Source of the DNA: a virus
DNA: 57,451 bases
IMG/VR virus record: IMGVR_UViG_3300046059_000043
Location: 1-57,451 of that record
Strand: one strand, 5' to 3'
A program made the translations under genes and the position numbers. The notes beneath the pieces are model-generated. The model was given only the letters and a program-made list of their open reading frames with translations. It searched no databases and was not told the DNA's origin. Positions within the stretch are counted from its first letter, which is position 1. Every line of letters begins with the position of its first letter. Of the stretch, positions 9,337 through 45,087 are shown piece after piece.

Positions 9337-9363
9337 CTCATAAGGCGCAACAGACGCTATGAG
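9337..9363. repeat. 27-bp sequence CTCATAAGGCGCAACAGACGCTATGAG, repeated in perfect inverted orientation at 56682..56708
   Basis: The reverse complement of 56682-56708 equals 9337-9363 exactly. Both copies include a start codon and its 22-nt leader. Confidence 0.9.
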
Positions 9364-12424: not shown

Positions 12425-13249
12425 ATGTTTTTTGCACAGGCTAACCATGAGAAACAGGCCGCCGAGGCGCTGAACAGGTCCCTCGCCGAGCACGAGCCGC
12501 GGTCCGTCTTTCTGCTTTTCAGCGGCGGACACGACTCGCTCGTATCCACCCACTTCTCGAACCTGTTTCTGCGGTCGAAGGGGCTGGATCCGACCGTCCT
12601 GCATATTGACACGACGATCAGCGTCCCCGAAAATGAGCAGTTCGTCCGGCAGACGGCCCGCGACCTGAAGTGGGCACTGCGGATCATCCGTAATGAGGAG
12701 CATGACGGCAAATCCTACGAGGAGTGGGTCCTCGATGAGGGCTTCCCGACCCCGTTGGACCACGTGTTCGTCTACGCCCACCTGAAGCGGGAGGCCATCC
12801 GCCAAGTCGTGCGCGAAGAGAAAGAGGAGCGCTCAGATCGGGTCCTATTCGTCACCGGCGTCTACGCGGGGGAGTCCGGTCGCCGGGCCGGGTTCCACGA
12901 ACCAGAGAAGCGGGTCGGCGCTCAGGTGTGGGTCAACCCCTGCTTCGACTGGTCCGAGTCTCAAATGGCTGAGTATCGCCGCCGCCATCACTTGCCGACA
13001 AATGAGCTCGCTGCCGAGTACGGAACCTCGCCGGAGTGCCTCTGCGGAGCGTTCGCGCACCCTGGTGACCTGGAGGCTGTTGAGCACATCTGCCCGGCCC
13101 TGGCCGCAAAAATTCGGAAGCTCGATGAGATGACGACAGGGCGGGGGTATCCCTGGAGCTGGGACCACGATGAGATTCCCCAGCGCTGGAAACAGGAAAA
13201 AGAAGGTCAGAAGTCCCTTTTCGAGCCTCTTTGCACAGACTGTGGATAA
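12425..13249 (+). CDS. PAPS-reductase-family PP-loop ATP pyrophosphatase, paralog 1 (274 aa)
   Basis: PP-loop VFLLFSGGHDSLVSTH, a later ECLCG element and a C-terminal CTDCG. Clearly paralogous to 13818..14720. Confidence 0.75.
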   Translation: MFFAQANHEKQAAEALNRSLAEHEPRSVFLLFSGGHDSLVSTHFSNLFLRSKGLDPTVLHIDTTISVPENEQFVRQTARDLKWALRIIRNEEHDGKSYEEWVLDEGFPTPLDHVFVYAHLKREAIRQVVREEKEERSDRVLFVTGVYAGESGRRAGFHEPEKRVGAQVWVNPCFDWSESQMAEYRRRHHLPTNELAAEYGTSPECLCGAFAHPGDLEAVEHICPALAAKIRKLDEMTTGRGYPWSWDHDEIPQRWKQEKEGQKSLFEPLCTDCG

Positions 13250-13254
13250 CTGCT

Positions 13255-13812: not shown

Positions 13813-13817
13813 ACCCG

Positions 13818-14720
13818 ATGAGCACGCTTCAAGAAGCGCTCCACAAAGGCAAAACGGCTCTCCGCGAGGCCATCGGTGAGCATGAGCCGAACCAGGTGTT
13901 CGCGGCCTTCTCCGGCGGGACCGACTCGCTGGTTGCGGCCCACGCCCTGCATAAGGCGCGGCTCGGCTGTATTGGAACGCCGGTGGCCGCGCTCCACATC
14001 AACACCGGCATCGGGATGCAGCGCACCCGAAAGTACGTGCGCAGCACCTGCGATCGGATGGGGTGGGACTTGGTTGAAGAGAAGGCCACCGACAACGGCC
14101 ACCGCTATGAGGACCTGGTGCGGGGGAAGCAAAAGGGTGTGCCGGGCGGCTTTCCAGGCCCGCCCCTGCACCCGCTCTACTACCGCTACCTCAAGGAGCG
14201 CCAGATTGAGCAGGTCCACCGCGATTATAAGGGGGGGCGGGGCGGCAAGATTATGCTCGTCACCGGCATCCGGGCCGACGAGAGCCGCGTGCGGGCCGGA
14301 TACGAGAACGGGTGGATCTCCCATCACAATGGCGTCGTCTGGGTCAACCTGATCTACGACGTGACCGCCAGCCAGAAGCAAACCTACATCGACACCTTCG
14401 GCCTGGAGACCAACCCCGTCTCCGACGTGTTCGGAATGAGCGGGGAATGCCTCTGTGGGTGCTTCGACGAGAACGGCGGTCGGCTGACCGAACTGAAAGC
14501 CTGCTGCAAGCGTTTTGATGAGATGGAGACCTACCGGCGCATCACGGGCCTTCAAGACGAGGTCTCCGATCGATACCCGTGGCGATGGGACGAGCGGAAG
14601 CCCGGCTGGGCCAAGCAGGCCGAAGAGGGGCAGCTTGCGTTTGAGGGCCTTCCCGGCGCAGAGAAAAATAACCGCCTCGCTCACATGTGCGTCGGGTGCG
14701 GGAAGTCAGGGACCGCGTAA
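13818..14720 (+). CDS. PAPS-reductase-family PP-loop ATP pyrophosphatase, paralog 2 (300 aa)
   Basis: PP-loop VFAAFSGGTDSLVAAH, GECLCGCF, YPWRWD, C-terminal CVGCG. It aligns by eye with paralog 1 along its whole length. Confidence 0.75.
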   Translation: MSTLQEALHKGKTALREAIGEHEPNQVFAAFSGGTDSLVAAHALHKARLGCIGTPVAALHINTGIGMQRTRKYVRSTCDRMGWDLVEEKATDNGHRYEDLVRGKQKGVPGGFPGPPLHPLYYRYLKERQIEQVHRDYKGGRGGKIMLVTGIRADESRVRAGYENGWISHHNGVVWVNLIYDVTASQKQTYIDTFGLETNPVSDVFGMSGECLCGCFDENGGRLTELKACCKRFDEMETYRRITGLQDEVSDRYPWRWDERKPGWAKQAEEGQLAFEGLPGAEKNNRLAHMCVGCGKSGTA

Positions 14721-27502: not shown

Positions 27503-27525
27503 CACCTCTCAGAGTGCAACAGACC
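27503..27525 (+). promoter_or_regulatory. CACCTCTCAGAGTGCAACAGACC box upstream of the capsid gene
   Basis: A degenerate relative of the int and terL upstream boxes, 58 nt before the ATG at 27583. Confidence 0.3.
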
Positions 27526-27582
27526 CGCTTGCCCGGCTCAGGGCGCACCTACTCTTTTTCTCACAACCGCACTCTGACACTT

Positions 27583-29031
27583 ATGAAAACGCGAATCACA
27601 ACCTTTCTCTGCGCGGTCCTTGGGGCCGTAGCGGTAGGTGTCGCCCTGGCCCTACCTGCCGAGGCCGCAGACACGCTTTCTCGTCTCGCTTCGGATCTGA
27701 TGAGCGCTCAGGCCGACCCTGGGGTCCTCCTGGCGGAGATGGCGCTCCCTGCCGCCACGAAGGAGAAGATCGACGACATCAAGAAAAACATGAAGGAGCT
27801 TCTGGACCCGGACGACGGCCTGATGGCGAAGGTGGGCACCATCGAGGGGCGCCTCGAAAACGTGAAGGAAAAGATTGAGAAGCGCTCCCTCGACAACGCT
27901 GAGTGGGTCGACGAGCTCAATGAGGCGATCAAGGAGCAGAAGATTAAGGAGGTCATGGAGGACATGTCCGAGGAGCTCCATGAGCGCATGGACGAGATCG
28001 AGAACCTCGGTGAGCTGGGCAATGGCAAGGCGGGCGGGTCCACGGGCCAGAAGATTGCCGAGAGCTTCAAGTCCGCCTACGAAAGCGCCTCGGACCCCGT
28101 CCGGGGGAAGTGGAGCGCGGACCTCTCCGGGATGCTGCTGAAGGAGATCACGAACGTCAGCGGCTCGGCGGGGCCGGCCATCGTGGAGCAGCAGCAGGAC
28201 GAGATCGTCGGCACCTCTCTCCGAGAGGTCACGATCTTCGACCTGCTGGATTCGGTCCCGGTGTCCACCGACACGGTCGACTTCGTGCGCGTGAAGGCGG
28301 TCACCGACAACGCAGGCAGCCAGCCCGGCCAAGGCGGCACCGTCCCGTTCAGCGACTGGACCTTTGAGGAGGTCAGCAAGAAGATCGAGACGATCATGAT
28401 GAAGGTGCGGGCCGCCCAGCAGGTCCTCGAAGACGAGCAGCGGCTCGAAAACTTCGTCCGCACAGAGCTGCGCCGATACCTCCTGATTGAAGCCGAAAAT
28501 CAGATCATCACCGGCGACGGCGTCGGCAACAACCTGCTCGGCCTCGTCCCGCAGTCGGTCGATTACGACAACAACTTGGAGGTCTCGGTCGTGGACAGTC
28601 CGGTCACGGACCTCGACCGCATCATGGTCGCCATCCTCCAGACGCAGCGCTCCGAGCTTCCGGCCACGGGCATCCTGATGCCCTACCTGAACTGGACCTC
28701 GATCCAGCTCATCAAGGACCAGGAGGGCCGCTACCTGTTCGTCCAGCCGCAGACTGACACGACGCCGCGCCTCTGGGGCCTGCCCGTCAATCCGACCAAC
28801 GCCCTGCCCGAAGGGTCCGCCCACGTCGGCAACTACAACCTGGGCGCCACCTTCTACGACCGGCAGGACACCGAGGTGATGGCCTCGACGGAGGACGAGG
28901 ACAATTTCCAGCGCCTGCTCGTCACGTTCCGCGCCACGATGCGGGGCCAGGTGGCCGTTAAGCGCAAGGAGGCGCTCGTCTCCATCCCGCAGGGCGAGCT
29001 GGACGGCACGGCTCCGACCGCTGGATCGTAA
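27583..29031 (+). CDS. Major capsid protein (HK97 fold) with an N-terminal coiled-coil delta/scaffold domain
   Basis: TIFDLLDSVPVSTDTVDFVRV, LEDEQRLENFVRTELRRYLLIEAENQIITGDGVGNNLLGL and ATFYDRQD...EDEDNFQRLLVTFRATMRGQVAVKRKEA are typical HK97-family blocks. The start is uncertain: 27583, or a downstream Met near 27703. Confidence 0.9.
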   Translation: MKTRITTFLCAVLGAVAVGVALALPAEAADTLSRLASDLMSAQADPGVLLAEMALPAATKEKIDDIKKNMKELLDPDDGLMAKVGTIEGRLENVKEKIEKRSLDNAEWVDELNEAIKEQKIKEVMEDMSEELHERMDEIENLGELGNGKAGGSTGQKIAESFKSAYESASDPVRGKWSADLSGMLLKEITNVSGSAGPAIVEQQQDEIVGTSLREVTIFDLLDSVPVSTDTVDFVRVKAVTDNAGSQPGQGGTVPFSDWTFEEVSKKIETIMMKVRAAQQVLEDEQRLENFVRTELRRYLLIEAENQIITGDGVGNNLLGLVPQSVDYDNNLEVSVVDSPVTDLDRIMVAILQTQRSELPATGILMPYLNWTSIQLIKDQEGRYLFVQPQTDTTPRLWGLPVNPTNALPEGSAHVGNYNLGATFYDRQDTEVMASTEDEDNFQRLLVTFRATMRGQVAVKRKEALVSIPQGELDGTAPTAGS

Positions 29032-29690
29032 TGATGCAGGATCCGGGTAAGCTCATCATCGGCGTCGGGACGGGCCGCTGCGGCACGAAGAGCCTCGTTC
29101 GGCTCTTGGCTCAGCAGCCCGCCACCCATGCCACGCACGAGCGGTTTCAGGACCGCGTGCGCTGGAACTGCCCAAAGAACCTGTGGCCCCTCCGGCTCTG
29201 GCGGGACACGGCTCAGCAGGAGGGGCCACCCGTTCGCGCGGAGGTGGCCCTTCACTGGACGCCCCACATTCGGGCGTTTCTCAAGTGGGCCGATCAGGAG
29301 GGCCGAACCCTCCGTGTCGTGGGCCTGAAGAGGAGCCGAGAGGAGACCATCGATTCCTACATGCGGTGGAAGCCCGATGCGGATCACTGGTCGTATCACG
29401 GCCATCGGTCACAGGCGACCGACGACTGGGACCACTGCTACCCGCCCGAGATGGAGGCGGACTCGAAGCGGGAGGCGATCGGCCTGTTTTGGGACCGCGT
29501 GTATTCGGAACTGGAGTCTATCGACGACGAGCGAGTGAAAGTCTTCAGGACTGAGGACCTGAACACTGAGGAGGGGGTCCGCTCTATCCTCAGCCACTGC
29601 GGCTACGAGGACCCCGTCGTAGACGTGGGAATCCAGATCCAAGCTCCTACCATCGAGGACGCCCGCAACTCGACGCAATGGGAGAGCTGA
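29031..29690 (+). CDS. Sulfotransferase-like protein (219 aa)
   Basis: IIGVGTGRCGTKSLVRLL resembles the PAPS 5'-phosphosulfate-binding loop (RSGTT type). VVGLKRSREETIDSY resembles the 3'-phosphate-binding R...S element. Its ATG overlaps the capsid stop (TAATG). Confidence 0.55.
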   Translation: MMQDPGKLIIGVGTGRCGTKSLVRLLAQQPATHATHERFQDRVRWNCPKNLWPLRLWRDTAQQEGPPVRAEVALHWTPHIRAFLKWADQEGRTLRVVGLKRSREETIDSYMRWKPDADHWSYHGHRSQATDDWDHCYPPEMEADSKREAIGLFWDRVYSELESIDDERVKVFRTEDLNTEEGVRSILSHCGYEDPVVDVGIQIQAPTIEDARNSTQWES

Positions 29691-29714
29691 CTTTCAGGAC
29701 GCTGCATAAAGAAA

Positions 29715-29744
29715 GCCCGCTCCGAGCGGTAACTCGAAGCGGGC
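29715..29744 (+). terminator. Hairpin GCCCGCT-C-CGAG-CGGTAA-CTCG-A-AGCGGGC after the sulfotransferase gene
   Basis: A 7+4 bp interrupted stem read directly. No T-run follows. Lower-GC spacer lies downstream. Confidence 0.35.
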
Positions 29745-29878
29745 ATAAGGTGTGCCAAGGGCGGCACAGACTGAAGTATTACTATGGTAACAAACGAATA
29801 CGACTGGGACAAGCCCGGACGAACACAAGAACACCGACTCTCTGAATCTTCACCTTGCCTTGACGGTGGACGAAGAGG

Positions 29879-30988
29879 ATGATTGACGAGATCGCCCACA
29901 TCATCCCGACGCACGAGCGGCCCGCCGTCGCTCAGCGCCTGGTCGATTCGATCAACCACTTTTATCCGGATTCGCAGGTCTACGTCTGCGACGACAGCCG
30001 CGCGCCAGAAACCTACGACGGGGCGACCGATGTCCCCGCGACGGCCTACGACATCGGCCTCAGCGCAAAGCGCAACCTGCTGGTGCAGGCGTCGACCGAA
30101 CCCTACGTGATGCTCTGGGACGATGACTACGTCTGTACCTCCAACACGGACCTTCGCGTCTTCTATGAGCTTCTCCAGGAGGTAGAGGGCTGTGGGATGG
30201 TCGGGGCCGAGTGGTCGCTCAGCCAAACGCAGGACCGAAATGTCTGGTTTACCGGCCAGCTCATTCCGAACGGCGCAGAAGTTAAGGTCCGCCCGCCCGA
30301 GGGAGACCCTGAGCGCATCGAGACCGGCGTGGGCACCCTCGCCTATCACGAAGTCGACCTGCTCCCGAACTGGTTCATGGCGCGGCGCGAGCTTCTGGAG
30401 ACCGTCCCGTGGGACGAGAAGCTGAAGCTGAACGAGCACCTCGAATTCTTTGCCCGCCTCACCGCGATTCGGGCAGACAGCCCACGCGGGAAGCGGTGGC
30501 GCGAGCGGTGGGAAACGCTCCAGGAGGGTGAGGACCTCTTCAAGGCCAGCCAGAATGGGAAAGCGGTCGTGCAGGCCCAAGCATCCTTCTCAAATAAGAA
30601 CCATCTGGAGCACATCGGCGGCCATGTAGCGACCGGCGACTGGATCGAGGTAGATTCCGACTACGCGGAGGAGCTAATCGACTCGGGGCTCGCCCTCCCG
30701 ATGAGCGCAGTAAGGGACACGCGCCCATTCCCATTGCTAAAGGGAACAGTGGACATGGATATGAAGTGTGTCTTAACGCCAAATACGACATCCCAGCACA
30801 TGCGAAGCGAGGGCCGCGCCTCTGAGGCGTACACGGAGAAGAGGTACCGCCGCGATCAGTTCATGCCGCTTCAGAAGGCAAAGCTCGGCATTCGGACGCG
30901 GGACCTGGTCCAGTGGTCGAGGTATCCGTACCCGTCGCCCGACTTTGACGACCCAGACCCCTCTCTACTCGAACTGCCTTCTGTCTAA
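29879..30988 (+). CDS. Family-2 (GT-A fold) glycosyltransferase with a C-terminal extension (369 aa)
   Basis: IIPTHERPAVAQRLVDSINHFYPDSQVYVCDDS follows the GT2 N-terminal pattern, and LWDDDY is a DxD motif. Confidence 0.7.
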   Translation: MIDEIAHIIPTHERPAVAQRLVDSINHFYPDSQVYVCDDSRAPETYDGATDVPATAYDIGLSAKRNLLVQASTEPYVMLWDDDYVCTSNTDLRVFYELLQEVEGCGMVGAEWSLSQTQDRNVWFTGQLIPNGAEVKVRPPEGDPERIETGVGTLAYHEVDLLPNWFMARRELLETVPWDEKLKLNEHLEFFARLTAIRADSPRGKRWRERWETLQEGEDLFKASQNGKAVVQAQASFSNKNHLEHIGGHVATGDWIEVDSDYAEELIDSGLALPMSAVRDTRPFPLLKGTVDMDMKCVLTPNTTSQHMRSEGRASEAYTEKRYRRDQFMPLQKAKLGIRTRDLVQWSRYPYPSPDFDDPDPSLLELPSV

Positions 30989-31003
30989 TTACCCTACAGT
31001 CTC

Positions 31004-31447
31004 ATGGCTACGCGCATCGAAGCACTCGCGTCCTTCGCAAACAGCGACGAGCTCGGCGACATTGGCGGGCTTATCGCTACTGGCGAAACCGCCGTCGTCG
31101 CCGACGAATACGCGGAGGAGTTGGAGCGGCAGGGGCTTGTGGAGATCATCGATACCGATGTAAACAGAAGCGATGACGGGGCGGAGGACGAATCGGACGG
31201 ATCAACCTCAACTTCCAGCTCTGAGGAGGGTGCTTCTGAGGAGCGGTCATTCGAGCACACGAGTTACGTCGATGAAGACGGCACTTTCACCGAGGAACTT
31301 CCCCACCATGAGCTGCTGGCGGAGTCAGGCGTTAATACCTTTGACGACTTGGCCGGGATCGCGGGCGCTTTTGAGTTCATAAGGGGAATCGGCCCCGCGA
31401 AGGCGGAGGACCTAAGCGAAGCCTGGGACGAAATTGTCAGTGAGTGA
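31004..31447 (+). CDS. Acidic protein with a C-terminal helix-hairpin-helix (147 aa)
   Basis: FEFIRGIGPAKAEDL is HhH-like. The N-terminal GGLIATGETAVVADEYAEELERQGL module is shared with the GT C-terminus. Confidence 0.55.
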   Translation: MATRIEALASFANSDELGDIGGLIATGETAVVADEYAEELERQGLVEIIDTDVNRSDDGAEDESDGSTSTSSSEEGASEERSFEHTSYVDEDGTFTEELPHHELLAESGVNTFDDLAGIAGAFEFIRGIGPAKAEDLSEAWDEIVSE

Positions 31448-32133
31448 TGGACGTGCGCACAGAGGACCTCATTACGAAAGATGATGTGGGCGATGCCCTG
31501 ATGCGCGCCGACGAGGGCGACGTGATTCGGGATAAGGCCCTCAAGGACGGCTCGGACTTCGAAGAGGAGGCGCTGGAGACAATTCGCTCAGTGACGGGTC
31601 GCATCCAGGACTGGCTTGCCCGCGACCTGATCGCGGCGGAGCATACCGACTACCTGAGTCCGCGCGACTGGTCGCAGAAGCGCGCCCACCCGACCCCCTC
31701 GACGGCCCACCCCTACCGCTACTACCCCCGCCAGTGGCCTCTGCTCGGCGTCACAGGCAAAAGCGACGCTGAACCCAGCGTGCACCTCGGGTCGGGCAGC
31801 AAGGTGGTCTGGTCCACCGCCTCGTCGCTTGCCTACGTGACGTACATCGCCGGTTACAAGCGCCCCGACCAGCAGCATTCGGACTTCCCGACTGTGGTCA
31901 CCGACAACGTAAGCCAAGGCGCGATCCCGCGCCTGCCAGAGAAGATCAGGCAGGTGGCCGAAAACATCGTTATCTACCGCCTCATGCAGCGGCTGAGCGG
32001 GCTGATTGGGATCTCGATGTCGGAGGTCTCATACGGGGAATTCGAGAACACGAAGAGCCAAAGGGAGGCCGACAAGGACTACGAAGAAAGGCAGCTCCGC
32101 ACGCTGACGGCGGGGCATGGCGCCATCGCCTAA
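31447..32133 (+). CDS. Putative head-tail adaptor/connector protein (228 aa)
   Basis: Assigned by position in the neck module. ATG overlaps the upstream TGA (TGATG). No strong motif. Confidence 0.4.
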   Translation: MDVRTEDLITKDDVGDALMRADEGDVIRDKALKDGSDFEEEALETIRSVTGRIQDWLARDLIAAEHTDYLSPRDWSQKRAHPTPSTAHPYRYYPRQWPLLGVTGKSDAEPSVHLGSGSKVVWSTASSLAYVTYIAGYKRPDQQHSDFPTVVTDNVSQGAIPRLPEKIRQVAENIVIYRLMQRLSGLIGISMSEVSYGEFENTKSQREADKDYEERQLRTLTAGHGAIA

Positions 32134-32174
32134 CCCACCACCCACGCGCGCCCCGCCTATATGAACATCCCTAT

Positions 32175-32804
32175 ATGAACATCAACATCGAGCACAACAT
32201 CGGCCAGGTGGCGGAGGTGTGGATGGAGGCCCCCGAGAGGCTCAAGCCGGAGGTGCTGCGGCCCTTAGCGAAGCGGATCCAGGTGCGCTTCGGCCAGATT
32301 GCGACGAACCGCTACATGCAGGAGGGGCCACCGAAGCTCCCGTGGGCCAACCGGTATCCGGACCGGCCCGCGGCGGATCCCGGTCCGCTTCGCAAGCTGC
32401 GCGGCCAGCTCGCCGCGGGCTATGAGGGCCGGTTTTACGGGGGCGAGCGGCAGGGGGAGACGAGCGTTGAGATTAGCGTGGGGGAAAGCTCGTTCCAGCT
32501 CCAGTGGAGCCGCGTCGTCAAGACGGCCTACGCCCGAATGCACGAGAAGGGCGGCTCGTTTAGCCACGAGGTCCCGATCACCGATCGGATGCGCGGCTAT
32601 CTCTACTACAAGGCGCAGGAGCAATCCTCCGGGCGCGGAACCGACTGGATGGCTCTCTTTATCGCTTCGCAGCACCAGAGCACGTTTTCTGTGGAGGGGT
32701 CCATCCCTGCCCGCCCCGTCGCAGAGCCGACGGCGGAGGACCTTCAGCCCTTCATCGTAGAGACGGCGGGTGACCTCGCCGATGACGTGCTTTCGGACCT
32801 TTGA
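32175..32804 (+). CDS. Putative neck/virion morphogenesis protein (HK97 gp10 / Mu gpG-like)
   Basis: YARMHEKGG...IPARPVAEPTAEDL resembles the conserved end of those families. Position in the neck module fits. Confidence 0.5.
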   Translation: MNINIEHNIGQVAEVWMEAPERLKPEVLRPLAKRIQVRFGQIATNRYMQEGPPKLPWANRYPDRPAADPGPLRKLRGQLAAGYEGRFYGGERQGETSVEISVGESSFQLQWSRVVKTAYARMHEKGGSFSHEVPITDRMRGYLYYKAQEQSSGRGTDWMALFIASQHQSTFSVEGSIPARPVAEPTAEDLQPFIVETAGDLADDVLSDL

Positions 32805-32828
32805 GCCGAACCAGCCCACCCCGCCGAC

Positions 32829-33401: not shown

Positions 33402-33443
33402 CACAGACGCCATTCCGCTTTTTTACAGCAGCCCGCCCCCGAT

Positions 33444-33923
33444 ATGGCTAAGCAAGGAGCATCCATCAAAGATCAGCAGCTCAAGTACGAGTACACGACC
33501 GACAACCCCTTCGAGGTCAGCTCCCCCACCTGGACGGAGATTGACGCCGTCCGCATGAGCGACGACAGCTCGGACCGGCCCCAGGTCGGATCCGTCGGCG
33601 CGACCGTCTTGGACGGTCGCCAGTCCTCGGCCCGGAAGGAGCTAGAGTTTGCCTACGCGGTCAAGAAGCACCAGAGCGAGGGCGCAGAGATTGACAACCT
33701 CCAGCAGTACGACGATGAGGAGACGCCCATCTGGGTCCGCGAGACGCCGCTTCAGGACGCAGGCACGCCCGATGTGATCGGCGGGCGCCTCGGCCTCATT
33801 CCGCGCATTGCCCAGCAGAAGCAGGGGAGCGACGGGCACCACATCTACCTGCTTGAGCTGAGCGGCACGGAGGCGCAGGCCGGGAAGCTGATGACGGAGG
33901 ATCCGAATTACACCGGCTCCTAA
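33444..33923 (+). CDS. Putative major tail (tube) protein (159 aa)
   Basis: Assigned by its position directly before the chaperone pair and the tape measure gene. Confidence 0.5.
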   Translation: MAKQGASIKDQQLKYEYTTDNPFEVSSPTWTEIDAVRMSDDSSDRPQVGSVGATVLDGRQSSARKELEFAYAVKKHQSEGAEIDNLQQYDDEETPIWVRETPLQDAGTPDVIGGRLGLIPRIAQQKQGSDGHHIYLLELSGTEAQAGKLMTEDPNYTGS

Positions 33924-38143: not shown

Positions 38144-41100
38144 ATGAGCAACGAGTTTTTCTCTACGTCTCTCCGGACGCGGGCGGGGACACTCGTCTTA
38201 CGAATGATCGATGACCGCCCCAACCCGACCACGATCAACTTCGGCTATTCCGTCGAGAGCGGGATTGACCTGCGCTGGGGCGAAGGTCGGTCAACGGGGT
38301 ATGGGGAACCCGTGGTGGGATCGTTTGCCGACATTACGGTCAAGGACCCGGAGAATCGGTTCCAGCAGTTCTTCGGGACCGAGTTCGATGAGCTAAGCTT
38401 CAAGGCCCTGATTGAGGGGAGCGTTGAGGGGCACCAGTTCCAGTGGAAGGGGCGCGTGCAGCAATCCCAGTTTGACCGCCCCGTAAGCCCGAGGGTCCAG
38501 AGCGAGCGAAAGACGATCCGCCTCTACGATCGGCTCGGGGCGCTGAAGGACAAAAACCCCATCCCCCGCCCGGAGATCCTGGATGTTGAGGAGTTTCTGA
38601 TGCGGACCCTGTTTCCGGCCCAGCCAAACGTTGACATCCTCTACGACATCGATGTGGAGGGGGCCTCATATTTTGACGGGTCCCCCGTCCCGCCGCAGGA
38701 GTGGTACCCCACCACCCGGCGCCCAGCCACCCGAGACGTGGGGGACACAGACGACGTGGACGATGAAGGCATCGGAGGGGGCTCCCTCCGCGAGCAGTTG
38801 GAGACGTTTGCGGGGCGCCTCGGCCTCAAGGTGTGGCAGGAGCCGTTTACGGGCACGTTCCACGTGGTGCCCCGCTTTCGGGTCGGAGAAGAGATCACGG
38901 ATGCCACCCGCATCACGTCGAACGGCTATCCCCTCGACGATAGCGCAACGCCCAGTTTCGACCGCTCGGCGACCATCCCTCAGCTTCTGGTTCAGGACCC
39001 GCCGCTGCGGGCGGAAAATCAGGACCGTTACCAGTCGGTCGAGGGGGTCAAGAAGGTGACCGTTGAGATCGAAAACTCGCCTCTCCTGAAGAACCCGCAC
39101 TTCAAGCTTTACGAATTTGTAAACAGCCGCACGGGGAGCCTGGAGGACTTCACGGCGGACTTTCTGTTCTGGGAGCAGGCCGAGAACCCGTACTTTGCGC
39201 AGAAGATGCAGGTGCTGTGGCCGTACAACAACCGCGTCTGGCGGAGCGAAGAGGAGGCAAACGACTACGTGGGCCTCAATGTCGTTGAGGACGACAATCA
39301 GCTCTCCCTGCTGCGGCAGCAAACGCGGCCCGTCTCGCGGCAGGACTTTCCCGTCACCGCGCGGCTTCTGTACCGAGCCGTGCCCATTGATCCAAACGCT
39401 CAAAAGAACGACGGATACGTCTTCAACCTCATCCTTGAGCACGTCCGAGACGACGGCACAACCAGTAGGGTCGAGACGGAAGAAATCACACCCACCTTTT
39501 TTGGGGCAGGTCTTGAGCCAGCCACCATCCCTGACGAGAAGTTTATTGAGACGCCCGCCTCACGTGAGGCGGGCCAATACAGGGTCACCGTTTCGGGAAA
39601 TAATATCTGGTTCAAGGTCGTCGGATTTGAGCTTACCGTTCAGAACCCGTCAGGGGATAACCTTCTCCTTTCGTCAATTGACATCACCCCCACCGACAAC
39701 GAGAAAGGGCGGAAAGAAGTCCAGATTAGCGATGATACCTTCTACTTCAACGGGGAGCTAAATCGGCTGAAGAATCCCCTCGGGCGAACCCAGTTTATCG
39801 AGAACTGGGAGAAAGAAACGCAACCGACGGTGCAGCCGATTGACTGGTCCAGCCCCCGCCTTGGCCGCAACTACGACAACCTGTATAAGTATCGGGCCGT
39901 CGCTCGGCTCGCCCAGCAGCCCCCCGGCACCGATGCGCTACAGACCCTGGTGGTGCCTGGCATCTTGACGCCAGGGCGAGCCATCGACATCCAGGATGAG
40001 GGGCGCCTCATTTTTGCCGGTGGGCGGACCGTGCACCTGACCGGTGAGGAGACGGGCACGACGGAACTCAACGACATTGTCGTCCCTGAGGTCCTTTCTG
40101 ATCCGATCGACCCTGGGGCTCGCCCAGAGGCGCCGGACATCCTTCTGACCTCGTTCGCCACGTACGACCTGACCGCGCAGGACGCGAGCCGAATCGAGGG
40201 GTACAAGCTGTCTCGCCGGAACGCGCCCGACGCGCCGGAAACGGAAGTTGAGCAGGCGGCGAGTCAGAATAGCCCTGAGAGCGTCGCGGATCCGAACCCG
40301 GCACCCGGCATGAACCTACATGTCGCGCGGACCTACAACTCGAACGGCGACAGCCCGCCCTCCCGCGAGGCTTTGCAGCTTCCCTCCGGCTGGTATAAAG
40401 ATGGGGATCCCGAGTTTTCGCCGAATCCCATTCCGAGCCCATCGGCAGGCGCGTCTAATGCCGCCCTGATCGACGGGGAGATGTACATTTTTGGCGGCAT
40501 AGACGGCTCTGGGCAGCACGCGCGCTGCTATAAATACGACGTGTGGGCCGACACGTGGACCCAGCTCCCGAATTATCCGGAGGGGCCGACCGAAGGACTT
40601 TTCGCTGCCGCGAGTCCCCCGAACGGCGGGATTATCGTCGGCGGCGGTATTGGCCCGGGCGGCGCTCGGCCTGGGACGCACTTCTGGAACCGATCCGTTC
40701 CGGAGTGGCAGCCGCTCGATAATTTGCCAGAACCGATCGGATACGGCGCCGTGGCCCGAGGGCGCGGCAGCGGAAACTACGAAATTCTGATCGCCCACGG
40801 CGGAGAGGATGGCGCAGGAGCCGCCACAAGCGCCGTGCAGCGGCTGAACTTAAATTCAGGGGCATGGGCTACCCTAAGCGACGCGCCCTTCTCAGAGCGT
40901 CGTCACGGCGCGGTCTACAGGCAGAGCGATGACCTGTGGTATGTGTTCGGCGGGGCGGAGGACCGCTCGCGCCTGTGGCAGTTCAACGCAAGGCAGGACG
41001 CGTGGTCATCGGTTGGGAGCGCCCCGCCCACGCCCGTATCGGAGTACGGAATCGCGTACTCAAACGCACAAGACTCTGCGTTCCTGATTGGCGGGACGCC

Positions 41101-41476
41101 CAGCGGGGGCGGCCAGGCCGAGCAGCCGCAGGAGTATTCGTTCTCCGCAGGCGCGTGGACGGAGCACGCCGGAATGCCGACTCCCAGAAGCGAGGCGCGG
41201 GGCGTCTTCATCGACGGCTTTGATGTTCTGTTCGCGGTCGGCGGGGACGGTGGCTCGCCGACGGGCATCAATGAGGTGTATGTCCTCGGGCTCAACCTCA
41301 AAAAGTCGGGCAGCGAGCCGACGTGGACGAGCTGTCAGGACTACACCGTGGATGAGCCGCTCACCGAAGAAAACGCGCCCACGTGGACGAGCTGCCAGAA
41401 CTACACCGTGACCGCCGAAACCGCAAACACGGCACCGCAGTGGACGAGCTGTCAGGATTATACGACCTCTGAATGA
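38144..41476 (+). CDS. Large tail/baseplate protein with a C-terminal Kelch-type beta-propeller and three terminal PTWTSCQDYT modules (1110 aa)
   Basis: Repeated Kelch-like blades (MYIFGGIDGSG...YKYDVWADTWTQLP; LWYVFGGAEDRSRLWQFNARQDAWSSV; FLIGGTP...YSFSAGAWTEHAGMP). It directly follows the tape measure gene. Confidence 0.75.
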   Translation: MSNEFFSTSLRTRAGTLVLRMIDDRPNPTTINFGYSVESGIDLRWGEGRSTGYGEPVVGSFADITVKDPENRFQQFFGTEFDELSFKALIEGSVEGHQFQWKGRVQQSQFDRPVSPRVQSERKTIRLYDRLGALKDKNPIPRPEILDVEEFLMRTLFPAQPNVDILYDIDVEGASYFDGSPVPPQEWYPTTRRPATRDVGDTDDVDDEGIGGGSLREQLETFAGRLGLKVWQEPFTGTFHVVPRFRVGEEITDATRITSNGYPLDDSATPSFDRSATIPQLLVQDPPLRAENQDRYQSVEGVKKVTVEIENSPLLKNPHFKLYEFVNSRTGSLEDFTADFLFWEQAENPYFAQKMQVLWPYNNRVWRSEEEANDYVGLNVVEDDNQLSLLRQQTRPVSRQDFPVTARLLYRAVPIDPNAQKNDGYVFNLILEHVRDDGTTSRVETEEITPTFFGAGLEPATIPDEKFIETPASREAGQYRVTVSGNNIWFKVVGFELTVQNPSGDNLLLSSIDITPTDNEKGRKEVQISDDTFYFNGELNRLKNPLGRTQFIENWEKETQPTVQPIDWSSPRLGRNYDNLYKYRAVARLAQQPPGTDALQTLVVPGILTPGRAIDIQDEGRLIFAGGRTVHLTGEETGTTELNDIVVPEVLSDPIDPGARPEAPDILLTSFATYDLTAQDASRIEGYKLSRRNAPDAPETEVEQAASQNSPESVADPNPAPGMNLHVARTYNSNGDSPPSREALQLPSGWYKDGDPEFSPNPIPSPSAGASNAALIDGEMYIFGGIDGSGQHARCYKYDVWADTWTQLPNYPEGPTEGLFAAASPPNGGIIVGGGIGPGGARPGTHFWNRSVPEWQPLDNLPEPIGYGAVARGRGSGNYEILIAHGGEDGAGAATSAVQRLNLNSGAWATLSDAPFSERRHGAVYRQSDDLWYVFGGAEDRSRLWQFNARQDAWSSVGSAPPTPVSEYGIAYSNAQDSAFLIGGTPSGGGQAEQPQEYSFSAGAWTEHAGMPTPRSEARGVFIDGFDVLFAVGGDGGSPTGINEVYVLGLNLKKSGSEPTWTSCQDYTVDEPLTEENAPTWTSCQNYTVTAETANTAPQWTSCQDYTTSE
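41318..41467 (+). repeat. Three in-frame copies of the P(T/Q)WTSCQ(D/N)YT module (periods of 60 and 57 nt)
   Basis: PTWTSCQDYTV at 41318-41350, PTWTSCQNYTV at 41378-41410, PQWTSCQDYTT at 41435-41467. Confidence 0.9.
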
Positions 41477-43149: not shown

Positions 43150-45087
43150 ATGTCAAAGCTGGTCACGAAGAGACTTTTTGCGCGGGTTGTGGTGTGGCAG
43201 CCCGCGACGGGGGCCGTCATCGACCTCCCGTCCCGATCGGTAACGGCAGGTGGGGGCTTCTCTCGGGACGAGAATCGAGCGGTGATGTCCGACGGCTCCG
43301 CCGAGCCGACCAGCCGCAGTCATAGTCTGAGGATCCCGATGTCGCACGAGGAGGCGCGTGTGGCAAGTCGGTTGTTCCGGCTCAATAGCTGTCCCGCGCG
43401 GGCACTGCTCATTGGCGTGGAGGGAACCGAGCACGTCCTCTGGCACGAGGAGACGCGCGTCAACATCGAAAGTTCAGAGACTGACCCAGGCCAGTCCGCG
43501 AAGGACCTCGTGCTGGAGTCCTCGATCTTCAACCCGGCGATCTTTCGCGGCATGAACCTGATTGAGGGGGTTCCTTGGCAGGCAACGGAGGCCAAAGACA
43601 CTGGCTCCGGCTTTGAGATGCGGTATCCGGGCGGCGGGTACCGGCCCGGCTACGAGGGACCCGCGTTCGGCGTAGGATCTGAAGACGTGGAGGTCGACAT
43701 GCTCGGCGTCCCGAGCGGCCTTACAGAGGCGACCGTTCAATTTGAGTTTCCGGCGTGGGGATCCGTCCTCAAGCTCGGCGCCGTCACCGGATACACGCTC
43801 GATAATGGAATCCTGAAGGCCCTGGACTGGAATGAGTCGGTGCTCGCGTTCGTCGGTGCGGGGCAGGAGCTTGAGGTTCCGGATCGCACGTGGTACGTAG
43901 AGATTGGGCTGGGCGACGCTGGGGGGCGGCCCCGCCTCGATGTGGTTCGGCCTGGCGTGGGGCAGGGCAAGTTTCTGACCGGAAACCGCGAGAAGGCGTG
44001 CGAGCGCTCCGCCGAGGAGCCGCCGTGGGACGAGATCCCTGAGCCGAACGAGCCGCCGCGGTGGGTGCGGAAAGAGCCGCTCGTGTACGGACTCGACAAC
44101 ATCCCGCCCACGTGGACGAGCTGTGAGGATTACACGACCTCTGAGGAGGGCACGGGTGGAGACAATTCACCGCCCACGTGGACGAGCTGCCAGGATTATA
44201 CTACGACGGAGGAGCAGGCTGAGCCGCCGGAGGAGACGTTCACGTACACGGCCCCGAACGTAGGGCCAACGAGTTACATCTTTACCGCCAGCGGCGGATT
44301 CTCGCGCTTTGATTACTTCCCGGCTCAGTCAAATTACGAGAACTATTTGGATCAGGACGCCGCCTACGACCTGGCCGTTGACGAGTCTGCGGGCTACGTA
44401 TTCCTTGCCATCCAGGAGGCCATTCGGCGCTTCGACTTGAGCGGCGGCTCCGGGACCAATGTGCTGCAAGAGTCCGGCAACGATCCAGTCGGGATTGCCG
44501 TCGACCCGCTCACCCAAGAGGTCTACTTCAGCTACCAGCAGCAAACGGGCATTTACAAGATTGCCTACGACGGGAGCGGGAAGACGCAGGTTGCCAGCGA
44601 CGCGGGGGAGGCGTATGCCCTCGGCGTGGCCCCGGACGGGGGCGACGGCGCGTACATCTTCGGCGTGAGTCCGACGGCGCAAGAGATTGCCCGCTGGAAC
44701 GCGGACGGGTCCGGGAAGAAGGTGCTGAAGGACCTTTCCGGAACGGTCTATTACCTCCAGCGCAACTGCCACCTGCACCTGGAGGGGGCGTGGGTCTTTT
44801 ACCAGCAGTCCAAGTCTGACTCACAGAGAAACGTGCGCCGCATCTCGATGGGCGGGGGCACCGATGAAGGAATTTTTCTTGAGGCGTCTACGTACACGAT
44901 CGCTGACCACCAGTATTGGACCGTGCTTCAAGAGGAGGATAAGTGGATTCAGCTCGAATCCGCAGAGGACGGAGCAACGCGAGTAGAAGAGCGAAACTTG
45001 GATGGGAGCGGTACTACATCCACGACCCTCTCAGGCACCTCCTATGACCTCGGAGAACGGATTGCTTCTGCACAGCTTGTCAGCTAA
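43150..45087 (+). CDS. Tail protein with two central PPTWTSC(E/Q)DYTT modules and a C-terminal YWTD/NHL-like beta-propeller (645 aa)
   Basis: Modules at 44104-44139 and 44170-44205. Propeller-like blades: GIAVDPLTQEVYFSYQQQTGIYKIAYDGSGKTQV; YALGVAPDGGDGAYIFGVSPTAQEIARWNADGSGKKVL. Confidence 0.65.
   Translation: MSKLVTKRLFARVVVWQPATGAVIDLPSRSVTAGGGFSRDENRAVMSDGSAEPTSRSHSLRIPMSHEEARVASRLFRLNSCPARALLIGVEGTEHVLWHEETRVNIESSETDPGQSAKDLVLESSIFNPAIFRGMNLIEGVPWQATEAKDTGSGFEMRYPGGGYRPGYEGPAFGVGSEDVEVDMLGVPSGLTEATVQFEFPAWGSVLKLGAVTGYTLDNGILKALDWNESVLAFVGAGQELEVPDRTWYVEIGLGDAGGRPRLDVVRPGVGQGKFLTGNREKACERSAEEPPWDEIPEPNEPPRWVRKEPLVYGLDNIPPTWTSCEDYTTSEEGTGGDNSPPTWTSCQDYTTTEEQAEPPEETFTYTAPNVGPTSYIFTASGGFSRFDYFPAQSNYENYLDQDAAYDLAVDESAGYVFLAIQEAIRRFDLSGGSGTNVLQESGNDPVGIAVDPLTQEVYFSYQQQTGIYKIAYDGSGKTQVASDAGEAYALGVAPDGGDGAYIFGVSPTAQEIARWNADGSGKKVLKDLSGTVYYLQRNCHLHLEGAWVFYQQSKSDSQRNVRRISMGGGTDEGIFLEASTYTIADHQYWTVLQEEDKWIQLESAEDGATRVEERNLDGSGTTSTTLSGTSYDLGERIASAQLVS

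Follow-up and report, generated by a model that had tools for sequence, protein, structure and literature searches.

The spike protein of the haloarchaeal virus HRPV-1 bears a sulfated N-glycan made by the N-glycosylation machinery of the archaeal host and not by virus enzymes, the virus being pleomorphic and membrane-containing. The glycosyltransferases TarP, which is prophage-encoded, and TarS act on cell-wall polymer. Freeman and colleagues are said to have placed, in 2023, the glycans of mycobacteriophages on the C-termini of capsid and tail-tube proteins. Phage-encoded glycosyltransferases of the mycobacteriophages Che8, Corndog and Myrna modify these two proteins, the most abundant of the virion (PMC11600133, PMC12363180). 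In F1 phages the glycosyltransferase genes are found close to the genome's 3' end (PMC11256854) and in cluster O they follow an O-methyltransferase, so that the capsid-adjacent position ascribed to some such genes by the first-pass annotation of the locus studied here is not general. Sulfotransferases have been annotated in Synechococcus phage S-SCSM1, Xanthomonas phage FoX4, OM43 phage MVGs and giant viruses, some of the giant-virus ones being fused to glycosyltransferases, and the role of those annotated in phages was explicitly called unclear (PMC10580990).

The DNA analysed here, termed the window, is the whole stretch of 57,451 nucleotides of the IMG/VR virus record IMGVR_UViG_3300046059_000043. 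It contains a sulfotransferase-like gene (ST, 29031..29690) and a glycosyltransferase gene (GT, 29879..30988), together termed the cassette, downstream of the major capsid gene; the genes and protein motifs given below for the region 27514 to 33923 are on the plus strand. As in the mycobacteriophages, the candidate acceptors are capsid and tail-tube proteins, both with conserved C-terminal tails, but the mycobacteriophage system has no sulfotransferase, hosts, capsid lineages and habitat are different, and the modification is proven there while it is proposed here. The annotated viral sulfotransferases share with ST the sulfotransferase fold, but they are of the Sulfotransfer_3/1 type and none is tied to a capsid gene or a candidate acceptor motif. 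The earlier statement that no described phage structural operon with a sulfotransferase was known has to be qualified, since annotated phage sulfotransferases exist; these are outside structural modules. Like TarP and other glycosyltransferases of lysogenic conversion, which decorate a surface polymer, GT is a phage-borne GT-A enzyme, and one distant ST-GT pair is beside an integrase; those enzymes, however, are prophage-expressed and act on host wall polymers, whereas the genes of the window are in a late head module. The likeness to HRPV-1, proposed here from the genes, would be that a virus of hypersaline habitats has sulfated glycan attached to a protein of its virion.

Capsid gene and sulfotransferase-like protein

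The major capsid gene (27514..29031) encodes a protein of the HK97 fold (Pfam Phage_capsid, 1.7e-35, residues 222-489; phrog_10, 1.4e-48) whose N-terminal region is a coiled-coil, delta/scaffold-like; the ATG 23 codons downstream may be its true start, the close homologue P0219 having 482 aa. Direct reading of the sequence revealed the expected stop/start overlap TAATG at 29029..29033, in which the capsid TAA (29029-29031) and the ST ATG (29031-29033) have one base in common, with a further ATG at 29034 directly after the start codon. Overlaps of this kind are commonplace in phage operons. The gap between capsid and ST genes in relatives is 5-37 nt and the 1-nt overlap is not kept; the tight capsid-ST linkage, rather than the overlap, is the conserved feature. 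No promoter-like site belonging to ST itself was seen in the window lineage and its start overlaps the capsid stop, so that its expression would be late and high.

ST (219 aa, AF2 pLDDT 88.4) belongs to a large, unannotated family of at least 1,513 clusters at 50% identity and is under purifying selection (dN/dS 0.14; 0.14-0.16 for ST and GT). Judged by predicted fold, motifs and transitive Pfam matches, ST is a PAPS sulfotransferase of the Sulfotransfer_4/3 type and not a Walker-A kinase. The top PDB matches of the AF2 model in Foldseek were the sulfotransferases 3rnl, SgdX2, Cpz8, TPSTs and 3-OSTs, with moderate scores (TM ~0.5) and with P-loop kinases further down the same list; the query-normalised TM was highest with TPSTs (0.55-0.56). 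Among 121 diverse members of the family, 78 matched Sulfotransfer_4 and 73 Sulfotransfer_3, and no kinase family was found among their Pfam matches. A broad family profile searched against the PDB retrieved sulfotransferases only, and both the phosphosulfate-binding loop and R-x7-S lined up with theirs, the matches to solved Sulfotransfer_4/3 structures being weak (E 0.007-1.3). ST itself is under every Pfam gathering threshold (Sulfotransfer_3, 17.7 bits vs 27) and no model was found for it in NCBIfam, but the fusion proteins described below score 40.1, 31.6 and 28.6 against the Sulfotransfer_4 gathering score of 22.8.

The predicted 5'-phosphosulfate-binding loop, G11-V-G-T-G-R16-C-G-T-K-S-L22 (29061..29096), corresponds to the family motif G-[TS]-G-R-[CS]-G-T-x-S-L, in which R16 is nearly invariant, and aligns with GLPRTGTLSM and GFGRTGTASL of solved sulfotransferases. 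Position 20 (K in ST), where the Walker-A lysine would sit, varies across the family, and the loop is therefore no Walker-A motif (GK[ST]). His36-Glu37 (29136..29141) is a candidate catalytic base: H36 is invariant in the 121 members and aligned to the conserved His of 5tiz, 8y9p, 9kf1 and 6b51, and E37 is kept in more than 90%. The predicted 3'-phosphate-binding element, R101-x7-S109-Y110 (29331..29360), has R101 and S109 invariant and aligned to RDRNDWLTS and RDSERWYDS of solved sulfotransferases. The family has invariant residues of its own in W45, W120, W133 and P138, together with the loop Cys ([CS] in the motif). Fold, loop (G-x-x-R-x-G-T-x-S-[LM]), a His ~20 residues on and R-x7-S, all in register, are thus common to ST and to the solved enzymes of Sulfotransfer_4 (PF17784) and Sulfotransfer_3 (PF13469), namely schistosome SULT (5tiz, 6b51), Cpz8 (9kf1), SgdX2 (8y9p) and 3rnl. 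Small molecules are the substrates of the solved enzymes; the ST family, by contrast, is embedded in glycan pathways.

Every motif named in the first-pass annotation was recovered, IIGVGTGRCGTKSLVRLL (residues 9-26) and KRSREETIDSY (residues 100-110) in ST and IIPTHERP, VYVCDDS and LWDDDY in GT. Its description of ST as sulfotransferase-like agrees with the fold, both PAPS-binding motifs and the transitive family membership, and the generic P-loop kinase that it had named as an example to the contrary runs against the ranking of sulfotransferases over kinases.

Glycosyltransferase and its surroundings

The second gene had been called a GT2 glycosyltransferase, and Pfam (Glycos_transf_2, 30.7 bits; GA 23.3), fold and homology all point to an intact GT-A/GT2 enzyme (369 aa, AF2 pLDDT 87.9). 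The protein has an N-terminal GT-A catalytic domain, GT2/GT12-like (residues ~1-200), and after it an extension that is confined to this phage clade. Its top Foldseek match is human B4GALNT1 (26% identity, rmsd 2.8, E 2e-13), which the family profile also matches at the sequence level (E 8e-19); on this sequence and model evidence, GT is homologous to B4GALNT1, the GM2/GD2 synthase of CAZy family GT12. The GT-A domains superpose with an rmsd of 2.8 Å over ~198 columns and the DDS, DxD and EH-EFF motifs align. The DxD motif W80-D-D-D-Y84 (30116..30130), identified from 35 homologues and the B4GALNT1 alignment, corresponds to VDDDF of that enzyme, and D81 and D83 are invariant, with D82 in at least 90%, among those homologues. 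B4GALNT1 is a eukaryotic Golgi enzyme acting on ganglioside glycans, whereas the phage GT appears soluble and continues C-terminally for ~170 aa, with a module common to a neighbouring head-region protein. After B4GALNT1 in the fold ranking come TarP and TarS (13-14% identity), which have the generic GT-A fold alone in common with GT.

That module, of 45 aa (residues 231-275; 30569..30703), is homologous to the N-terminus of the small acidic protein N1 (31004..31447), encoded directly after the cassette in conserved synteny (BLASTP, 49% identity, E 2.6e-7; hhalign, probability 98.4%, E 1e-14). It is missing from the 246-aa, integrase-adjacent GT of lineage L115 and from the GTs of L116. In N1 an acidic linker comes after it, and the C-terminus holds a helix-hairpin-helix-like motif; N1 gave weak matches to the RNAP alpha-CTD (E 0.1) and to phrog_2616.

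The spacer between ST and GT (29691..29878, 188 nt) has 53% GC vs 62% for the whole window and holds a hairpin at 29715-29744. The hairpin and the lower GC noted earlier are therefore both real, but a T-run is present on the minus strand only, the fold energy is unexceptional (z = -1.7), and the spacer is lineage-specific, without an Rfam match and not conserved in relatives. In these, ST and GT genes overlap or the spacer is different, that of L002 holding a 59-aa zinc-ribbon ORF; insertions concentrate at the ST-GT junction, a hot spot.

Relatives, fusions and Gly-Ser tails

A survey of related contigs, suggested at the time of the first annotation, revealed that the capsid-ST-GT arrangement is conserved, cultured Salinibacter phages included. 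These and at least six metagenomic lineages keep the order capsid-ST-GT-N1-N2, and capsid-ST-GT synteny is shared by the cultured phages of Salinibacter ruber M8, the OR896220 lineage among them, and many hypersaline viral contigs. In the head module of L116, portal and protease genes flank the same ST and two GT paralogues, and an unrelated SU10-type capsid module likewise has ST and GT2; the cassette is thus part of head modules that differ in arrangement, three in all. In the distant relative L115 (ST 41% identical), an intact ST and a short GT are between lysis genes and an integrase, a classic lysogenic-conversion position. The window encodes a short tyrosine recombinase, and its phage may therefore be temperate. 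L013 has lost the cassette by a clean deletion of 1,555 bp, with 95% identity to Salinibacter phage 14_3 in the sequence to either side; this natural variant shows that the cassette is dispensable.

P0213, P0193, P0194, P0088 and P0125 each join ST to a GT of the window type, ST coming first, and an ST-GT fusion is also found at four cellular loci. Cellular ST-family genes neighbour GT2, GT8, pyruvyl-transferase and NTP-transferase genes in polysaccharide clusters, and viral ones are found among sugar-modifying genes. Since the two domains are fused and occur in polysaccharide clusters elsewhere, it is likely that they make a sulfated sugar jointly.

The capsid protein extends past its HK97 domain (the Pfam match stops at residue 489 of 505) in a tail, SIPQGELDGTAPTAGS (28981..29028), which is a candidate acceptor and terminates in the conserved [AS]-P-[TSV]-x-G-S-COOH. 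The tail is kept across lineages with capsid proteins only 37-40% identical, and its codons have turned over synonymously, TCN/AGY serine codons among them. All eight cassette-bearing lineages have capsids ending in GS and none of six relatives without the cassette does (L013, L105, L107, L117, L119, L120), absence being judged from fetched flanks of 3.5-8 kb only; L013 has APTAA vs APTAGS in Salinibacter phage 14_3. A second candidate acceptor is the putative major tail (tube) protein (33444..33923), assigned solely by position, its gene being flanked by those for neck/tail completion (phrog_26) and tape measure. It gave no family or PDB match and ends in P-N-Y-T-G-S-COOH, and its homologues all end in GS wherever the end is visible, L116 included. 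Three of the 68 ORFs of the window end in GS vs 0.4 expected. The GS tails of capsid and putative tail-tube proteins co-vary with the cassette, a previously unnoted association that is confounded by phylogeny, most cassette-bearing contigs being one clade. Tyr is not conserved in these tails.

Predicted substrate of the cassette

We asked on what the two enzymes may act. With late expression, ST and GT might form a virion-modification cassette working on the GS tails of capsid and tail tube, a reading to which sequence, models and the mycobacteriophage analogy give about an even chance. The first-pass annotation had proposed sulfated glycans or sulfotyrosine on virion proteins; modification of the virion is still the best-supported reading, through the GS-tail co-variation, but sulfotyrosine is not favoured, since the Tyr-containing repeat PTWTSCQDYT is absent from the complete record of the cassette-bearing Salinibacter phage 14_3 and Tyr is unconserved in the GS tails. 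The repeat does exist, in 6 copies, and so do the two PAPS_reduct genes (12425..13249 and 13818..14720, in the replication/DNA-modification region), but neither serves as the support it was taken for: the repeat fails through its absence from 14_3, and the two genes fall far short of what CysH models require (38 bits where the cut-off is 154, and 23 where it is 254). A genuine PAPS reductase would use up PAPS and not provide it.

That ST is a tyrosine sulfotransferase acting on Asp-Tyr of these repeats in tail proteins is thus very improbable, although TPSTs give its best query-normalised TM, Asp precedes Tyr in each module and the R16-to-E37 spacing of 21 residues equals the R78-to-E99 spacing of TPST2; the fusion and clustering of the family with glycosyltransferases argue against it as well. 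There is also little likelihood that ST is a P-loop kinase-like or non-catalytic protein beside a GT that alone is enzymatically relevant. The sub-threshold Pfam scores, the missing NCBIfam model and fold matches to adenylate kinase, TmrD and PFKFB at similar TM scores would suit it, but the family motif G-x-G-R-C-G-T-x-S-L is without the Walker-A lysine, R-x7-S, an element typical of PAPS 3'-phosphate sites, does not vary, the profiles match sulfotransferases only and these precede kinases in the fold search. Similarly improbable is some other cytoplasmic substrate (phage DNA, a small molecule, or a protein of phage or host that is not structural) with an accidental capsid adjacency: Cpz8, SgdX2 and schistosome SULT take small molecules, the acceptor of the phage enzymes is a candidate only, and the window also encodes a C5 methylase and PP-loop enzymes, but repeated fusion and clustering with glycosyltransferases indicate a glycan product, and both the head-module association, kept across capsids only 36-40% identical, and the GS-tail co-variation argue against it.

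A larger share of probability, still short of likely, goes to a moron that adds a sulfated sugar, at the cytoplasmic face, to a host envelope glycan such as the LPS O-antigen or another surface polysaccharide intermediate, which would mask the receptor and lead to superinfection exclusion or keep progeny from being lost on cell debris. It is consistent with the polysaccharide clusters of cellular family members, the insertion hot spot, and the O-antigen islands of S. ruber, which are rich in sulfotransferases and glycosyltransferases and thought to govern virus recognition (PMC6060240). Several observations favour it and at the same time count against action on the virion: B4GALNT1, the closest characterised homologue of GT, extends a glycan and does not initiate on protein; TarP and TarS modify wall teichoic acid; the L115 cassette is beside an integrase; the window has a tyrosine recombinase; and the cassette is dispensable in L013. 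On the contrary, the expected late, high expression of ST fits superinfection exclusion badly, no membrane or export signal was seen in ST or GT when their sequences were read by eye, and neither the persistence of the cassette in head modules nor its co-variation with the GS ends of two virion proteins is explained.

For a cassette acting on the virion, we infer from the genes an enzymatic activity, donor sugar, acceptor residue, reaction order and effect on the particle. The GT12-like GT-A enzyme would transfer a sugar, possibly HexNAc going by its closest homologue, from a nucleotide-sugar donor onto newly made virion subunits in the cytoplasm, the best candidate acceptor being the hydroxyl in the conserved Gly-Ser-COOH end that the major capsid protein shares with the putative tail-tube protein. 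ST would then sulfate that sugar with host-made PAPS. Virion LC-MS/MS has been carried out on other Salinibacter viruses, without the ST gene (Villamor et al. 2018). If the proposed modification is true, the virion surface would become densely covered with fixed negative charges.

Arrangement of the genes next to the capsid gene

Analysis of the window indicated a siphovirus-like genome in which the late genes are arranged, 5' to 3', in the order portal, MuF-like protein, a 643-aa protein, capsid, ST, GT, N1, N2, neck/tail-completion and further genes including the tape measure. The major capsid protein is of the HK97 type (27514..29031; Pfam Phage_capsid 1.7e-35, phrog_10 1.4e-48), and the gene directly 3' of it encodes the 219-aa sulfotransferase-like protein ST (29031..29690). 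A spacer of 188 nt with 53% GC, vs 62% in the window, separates ST from the gene of the 369-aa glycosyltransferase GT (29879..30988), which is followed by the genes of two small proteins, N1 (31004..31447) and N2 (31444..32133). The capsid stop codon TAA (29029-29031) and the ATG of ORF 29031..29690 have one base in common; this overlap, the hairpin within the spacer (29715-29744) and every motif quoted in the first-pass annotation were found in the sequence.

The T-run that follows the hairpin is on the minus strand only, opposite to the plus strand that codes for every neighbouring gene, and intrinsic termination there would affect antisense transcripts only. A regulatory RNA in the spacer was rejected, as there were no Rfam matches, no conservation and no exceptional fold energy, and the T-run lies on the non-coding strand. 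The spacer is treated here as lineage-specific filler or an insertion scar.

Within the capsid ORF, a hydrophobic, signal-peptide-like stretch (MKTRITTFLCAVLGAVAVGVALALPAEA-AD; 27583-27670, residues ~24-52) precedes a coiled-coil region, and comparable N-terminal stretches were observed in several, not all, capsid relatives (proteins P0221, P0222, P0224 and P0225 and locus L003). Such a start is unusual for a capsid protein and might be explained by a wrongly called start codon, or by a small membrane ORF distinct from the capsid gene. Elsewhere the window encodes a short tyrosine recombinase (9359-9943), a C5 cytosine DNA methylase (5696-6739) and a holin-family protein (47645-48235). The recombinase consists of the catalytic domain only (Phage_integrase 5.8e-36), and with it the lifestyle of the phage could be either temperate or lytic.

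Assignment of ST and GT

When ST of the window was analysed alone, Pfam placed Sulfotransfer_3 over the N-terminal loop at 17.7 bits, below the gathering threshold of 27 bits, and none of the NCBIfam and PHROGs family models matched. A single-sequence search of the PDB returned nothing above noise level (carbonic anhydrase, de novo proteins; E > 0.2), and a 37-sequence ST profile retrieved no sulfotransferase, with a kinesin at E 0.36. Among the PDB searches with ST sequence or profiles only that with a 121-member profile reached sulfotransferases, and it returned sulfotransferases only (schistosome SULT 5tiz and 6b51, 3rnl, SgdX2 and Cpz8; E 0.007-1.3). An exhaustive profile search delimited a family of at least 1,513 cluster representatives at E <= 1e-3, a lower bound with clusters counted at 50% identity, and 392 at E <= 1e-30; most members are stand-alone proteins of ~200 aa. 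Scanned one by one against Pfam, 121 diverse members matched Sulfotransfer_4 (78/121 at E <= 0.01), Sulfotransfer_3 (73/121) and Sulfotransfer_1 (7/121), and no kinase family was among their matches. In multidomain relatives the ST domain passes the Sulfotransfer_4 gathering score (40.1, 31.6 and 28.6 vs 22.8 bits).

The alignment of the 121 members revealed the elements by which sulfotransferases bind PAPS. A 5'-phosphosulfate-binding loop of the P-[KR]-[ST]-G-T-T type follows strand 1 of ST and reads G-T-G-R16-C-G-T-K-S-L, with R16, G18, T19 and S21 at least 90% conserved (n=121); in the form G-T-G-R-C-G-T-x-S-L it aligns with the corresponding loops GLPRTGTLSM and GFGRTGTASL of solved sulfotransferases. 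R101 and S109 (R-x7-S) are invariant in 121/121 members and align with the 3'-phosphate elements RDRNDWLTS of 5tiz and RDSERWYDS of 9kf1. H36 is also invariant, followed by E37 at more than 90% conservation, and four structures of the Sulfotransfer_4 type have a conserved His at the position aligned with H36; H36/E37 is a candidate catalytic base.

The AF2 model of ST (pLDDT 88.4) gave sulfotransferases in 7/9 first Foldseek matches in the PDB (E 2e-5 to 6e-4, TM 0.43-0.56). The first fold matches were 3rnl, SgdX2, Cpz8, TPST1/2 and 3-OSTs (E 2e-5 to 1e-3), with TM only ~0.5, and P-loop kinases were interleaved from rank 8. ST as a Walker-A kinase (G-x4-G-K-[ST]) was rejected: a Thr follows G18, and relatives have M, T, V, H, L, Q, E or D in place of K20 but keep R16. 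From the profiles and the modelled fold we conclude that ST belongs to a distinct, unannotated subfamily of the PAPS-sulfotransferase superfamily, its activity being a predicted one. The earlier assignment of 29031..29690 as a sulfotransferase is thus well supported by profile and structure searches at the superfamily level, with a sub-threshold Pfam score for the window protein itself.

The assignment of 29879..30988 as a GT-A/GT2 enzyme was likewise confirmed by fold, profile and DxD motif. GT passes Pfam Glycos_transf_2 (PF00535) with 30.7 bits vs a threshold of 23.3, and a precomputed PF00535 match exists for 30/35 of the GT homologues found; across these 35 homologues no substitution occurs at D38-D39-S40, D81 or D83, and at least 90% retain D82. 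The GT family profile matches human B4GALNT1 (GT12) by sequence at E 8e-19, the DDS, DxD (W-D-D-D-Y) and EH-EFF motifs aligning with those of B4GALNT1 (ADDS, VDDDF). The AF2 model of GT (pLDDT 87.9) superimposes on the same enzyme (E 2e-13, rmsd 2.8 Å, 26% identity), which indicates a GT-A fold, and the next fold matches were TarP, TarS, a polypeptide GalNAc-transferase (ppGalNAc-T) and K4CP. At 26% identity, the similarity to a GalNAc transferase is only a lead to the possible donor and acceptor of GT. The original observation is confirmed, and the enzymatic assignments of both ST and GT are well supported at the superfamily level.

The C-terminal ~170 residues of GT are specific to this phage clade and contain a 45-aa module (GT residues 231-275; 30569-30703) homologous to the N-terminus of N1 (31016-31150; BLASTP E 2.6e-7, hhalign 98.4%, E 1e-14), with weak similarity to DUF7302/phrog_2616. 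The copy in GT appears to stem from partial duplication of the adjacent N1 gene, and the two copies could share a docking role. The C-terminus of N1 showed a weak RNAP alpha-CTD/HhH-like similarity.

ST and GT in related phages and in cells

The closest cultured relatives of the window are phages of Salinibacter ruber M8 from the Es Trenc saltern (184 records), whose genes are all annotated as 'hypothetical protein'. A survey of related phages and contigs, as suggested in the first-pass annotation, showed that the capsid-ST-GT arrangement is conserved: the order upstream protein-capsid-ST-GT-N1-N2 is shared by these cultured phages and by several lineages from metagenomes (L001-L010, L104 and L114), across which identity falls from 85% to ~54% for ST and from 90% to ~37% for the capsid. 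Only in the window do capsid and ST overlap by 1 nt; elsewhere 5-37 nt lie between them. The junction of ST and GT is variable, with overlapping genes in some lineages and unrelated spacers in others; in the closest metagenomic relative (L002, 1075-1254) the spacer holds a 59-aa ORF with a zinc ribbon (CPxCG...CPxC), which the window lacks. Small insertions appear to be frequent at this junction. Purifying selection acts on both phage genes (dN/dS 0.14 and 0.16, dS unsaturated).

When metagenomes were scanned with the capsid profile, only a single locus was obtained. In some other relatives the genes are arranged differently. On contig L116 of a more distant phage (FUIF01015123.1; 2618-4930, 7001-8338, 12251-12727), whose capsid is 36% identical to that of the window, a GT-ST-GT set matching the window families at E 3e-45, 5e-61 and 1e-48 is located between the portal and prohead protease genes, still inside the head module and at another place than in the window. 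Locus L015 carries an SU10-type capsid gene unrelated to that of the window, with an ST-family gene and a GT2 gene 1.7 kb downstream. The capsid relatives L117 (7701-12251) and L118 (Logan SRR15882668, SRR15706865) are without ST and have another capsid tail; their capsid gene is closely followed by genes for a GT-D enzyme and two methyltransferases. This gene content suggests that glycan-modifying genes of the head module recur in this capsid clade with varying chemistry.

Alignment of the deletion variant L013 (IMGVR_UViG_3300017511_000014, 5986-6210) with L001 (6631-8185) revealed a clean deletion of 1,555 bp, with 95% identity to Salinibacter phage 14_3 in the sequence on either side. The deletion removes the 3' two-thirds of ST and the whole of GT, and the ST start codon is mutated from ATG to ACG. 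The cassette formed by ST and GT is therefore accessory.

Fusion of an ST domain to a window-type GT, in that order, was found in proteins P0213, P0193, P0194, P0088 and P0125 (GT profile E 1e-38 to 1e-19) and at four cellular loci, one of which belongs to Planctomycetales bacterium ZRK34 (complete genome). Further fusion partners of the ST domain are GT2, GT25, Caps_synth, methyltransferase and PIG-L. Cellular members of the family occur in Planctomycetota, where they are especially frequent, and in Bacteroidota, Proteobacteria, cyanobacteria and CPR/DPANN, next to genes for GT2, GT8, polysaccharide pyruvyl-transferase and sugar nucleotidyl-transferase, and the neighbours of distant viral members encode FkbM methyltransferase, epimerase, DegT aminotransferase and nucleotide-sugar transferase. 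Judged by these fusions and neighbourhoods, ST and GT belong together and their predicted product is a glycan. A recent capture of ST from the host was rejected, since neither a Salinibacter nor a close cellular homologue was found and the best cellular matches were at most 37% identical in a scan limited by its search pattern.

Candidate acceptors and the proposed role of the cassette

The capsid protein of the window runs 16 residues past the Pfam domain and ends in APTAGS. Capsid ends follow the pattern [AS]-P-[TSV]-x(0-1)-G(G)-S across lineages (APTAGS, APTTGS, SPSGS, APSGS, APTGS, APVGS, SPSGGS and APSSGS, with TAGSGS in L116), while the sequence upstream diverges. Codon turnover in this tail is synonymous and includes TCN <-> AGY serine switches; selection therefore acts on the peptide and not on the downstream ribosome-binding region. 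The protein of ORF 33444..33923 (159 aa) also ends in GS in every lineage (PNYTGS, PNAGS, PEGGGS, PATSGS and PENSGS), and its homologue in L116 ends in TPGSGS, just as the L116 capsid ends in GSGS. This ORF lies at the position of a major tail protein, between the neck genes and the chaperone/tape-measure genes; PHROGs, Pfam-style searches and the PDB gave no family or structure match for it, and it is a putative tail tube by gene order only. In the window 3/68 ORFs end in GS vs 0.4 expected.

Capsid C-termini of loci with no cassette in the fetched flanks were GGASP (L105), DLTA (L107), IVSS (L117), AEGG (L119) and DSDA (L120), and in the deletion variant L013 APTAGS is changed to APTAA. The capsid GS tail was thus present in 8/8 lineages with the cassette vs 0/6 without it, in a phylogenetically confounded sample in which absence of the cassette was judged within flanks of 3.5-8 kb. 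The sole hydroxyl conserved in both the capsid and the putative tail-tube tails is that of the terminal serine, and Tyr is not conserved. The acidic S/T-rich linker of N1 was rejected as a conserved acceptor, as it is not conserved in relatives.

Several arguments by which virion sulfation had first been supported did not hold. The two PAPS_reduct genes (12425..13249 and 13818..14720), taken as signs of PAPS metabolism, match only the PP-loop domain PF01507 and phrog_424 and are far below the CysH equivalog cut-offs (PRK02090, 37.8 and 21.1 bits vs 154; TIGR02057, 22.7 and 19.3 bits vs 254). Together they span 12425-14720 and flank a DUF6011/DUF6166 gene in a replication/recombination/modification region. 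A role in a system that modifies nucleic acids is more likely for them than one in sulfur metabolism, and they are uninformative on the supply of PAPS. The tyrosine-containing module PTWTSCQDYT was rejected as the ST substrate, as the complete Salinibacter phage 14_3 record has the cassette and lacks the module. This 11-aa module, P-[TQ]-W-[TS]-S-C-[QE]-[DN]-Y-T, has six copies in the window: three at the C-terminus of the tail protein of ORF 38144..41476 (41324, 41384 and 41441), two in the tail protein of ORF 43150..45087 (44113 and 44179) and one that closes a + strand reading frame near 53.3 kb (53262). In the two large tail proteins the copies are in tandem, at or near the C-termini, and the module could be a Cys-containing adhesion or cross-linking motif. 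The parallel drawn with capsid-adjacent GTs of mycobacteriophages also fails for the F1 phages described in PMC11256854, where the GT genes are near the 3' end of the genome and not by the capsid gene.

Annotated phage sulfotransferase genes do exist, and their role is stated to be unclear (PMC10580990). Our literature search on phage and viral sulfotransferases found no dedicated paper and none on a structural-module phage sulfotransferase or a sulfated phage particle, and the Salinibacter virus papers make no mention of the ST and GT genes.

We propose, with an even chance of being right, that ST and GT form a late-expressed virion-coating cassette. GT would glycosylate the GS tails at the C-termini of the capsid and tail-tube subunits, and ST would sulfate the attached sugar with host PAPS as donor. 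The main rival explanation, that the cassette modifies a surface glycan of the host, is supported by the tyrosine recombinase encoded in the window, by the glycan-extending function of B4GALNT1, the nearest homologue of GT, and by the integrase-adjacent relative L115 (5957-7276; ENA ERZ1758345 QH_Go_Scaff1255629). In this temperate-looking phage an intact ST and a short GT of the window type (246 aa, without the C-terminal extension) are located between the lysis genes and the integrase, the classic position of lysogenic-conversion genes; the public gene call places the start of its ST downstream of the P-loop, which is thereby left out, and the real ATG is at ~5957. We consider modification of the host surface rather unlikely.

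In a more specific form of such coating, the terminal Ser of each capsid and tail-tube subunit in Salinibacter phages and related phages would be capped enzymatically with a sulfated sugar by two enzymes of the phage, the GT12-like transferase and a sulfotransferase of a new subfamily; this is a tentative idea, possible and still open to more doubt than belief. Freeman et al. 2023 reportedly found modification on the C-termini of mycobacteriophage capsid and tail-tube proteins. The mycobacteriophage type combines one or more phage-encoded GTs with glycans on capsid and tail-tube subunits; here a GT is encoded, and the conserved C-terminal GS tails of the capsid and putative tail-tube proteins, which co-vary with the cassette, lend indirect support to a system of this type. 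The present system is testable, with 184 cultured Salinibacter ruber M8 phage records that have the genes, a natural deletion variant and a specific predicted acceptor peptide.

If true, capping with a sulfated sugar would give the first sulfated phage particle, P-x-x-G-S-COOH would be a short, portable acceptor tag for a two-enzyme virion-coating system, and the coating would possibly adapt the charge and hydration of the particle to saturated brine. It would also offer, for the first time, a concrete idea of what the sulfotransferase genes dispersed over phage and giant-virus genomes do. The finding defines a large, currently unannotated sulfotransferase subfamily, often fused to glycosyltransferases. 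To our knowledge, glycosylation of phage virions is a recent discovery that so far concerns mycobacteriophages alone; if unrelated saltern phages had a sulfated version, enzymatic coating of the particle would be broader and chemically richer than thought.
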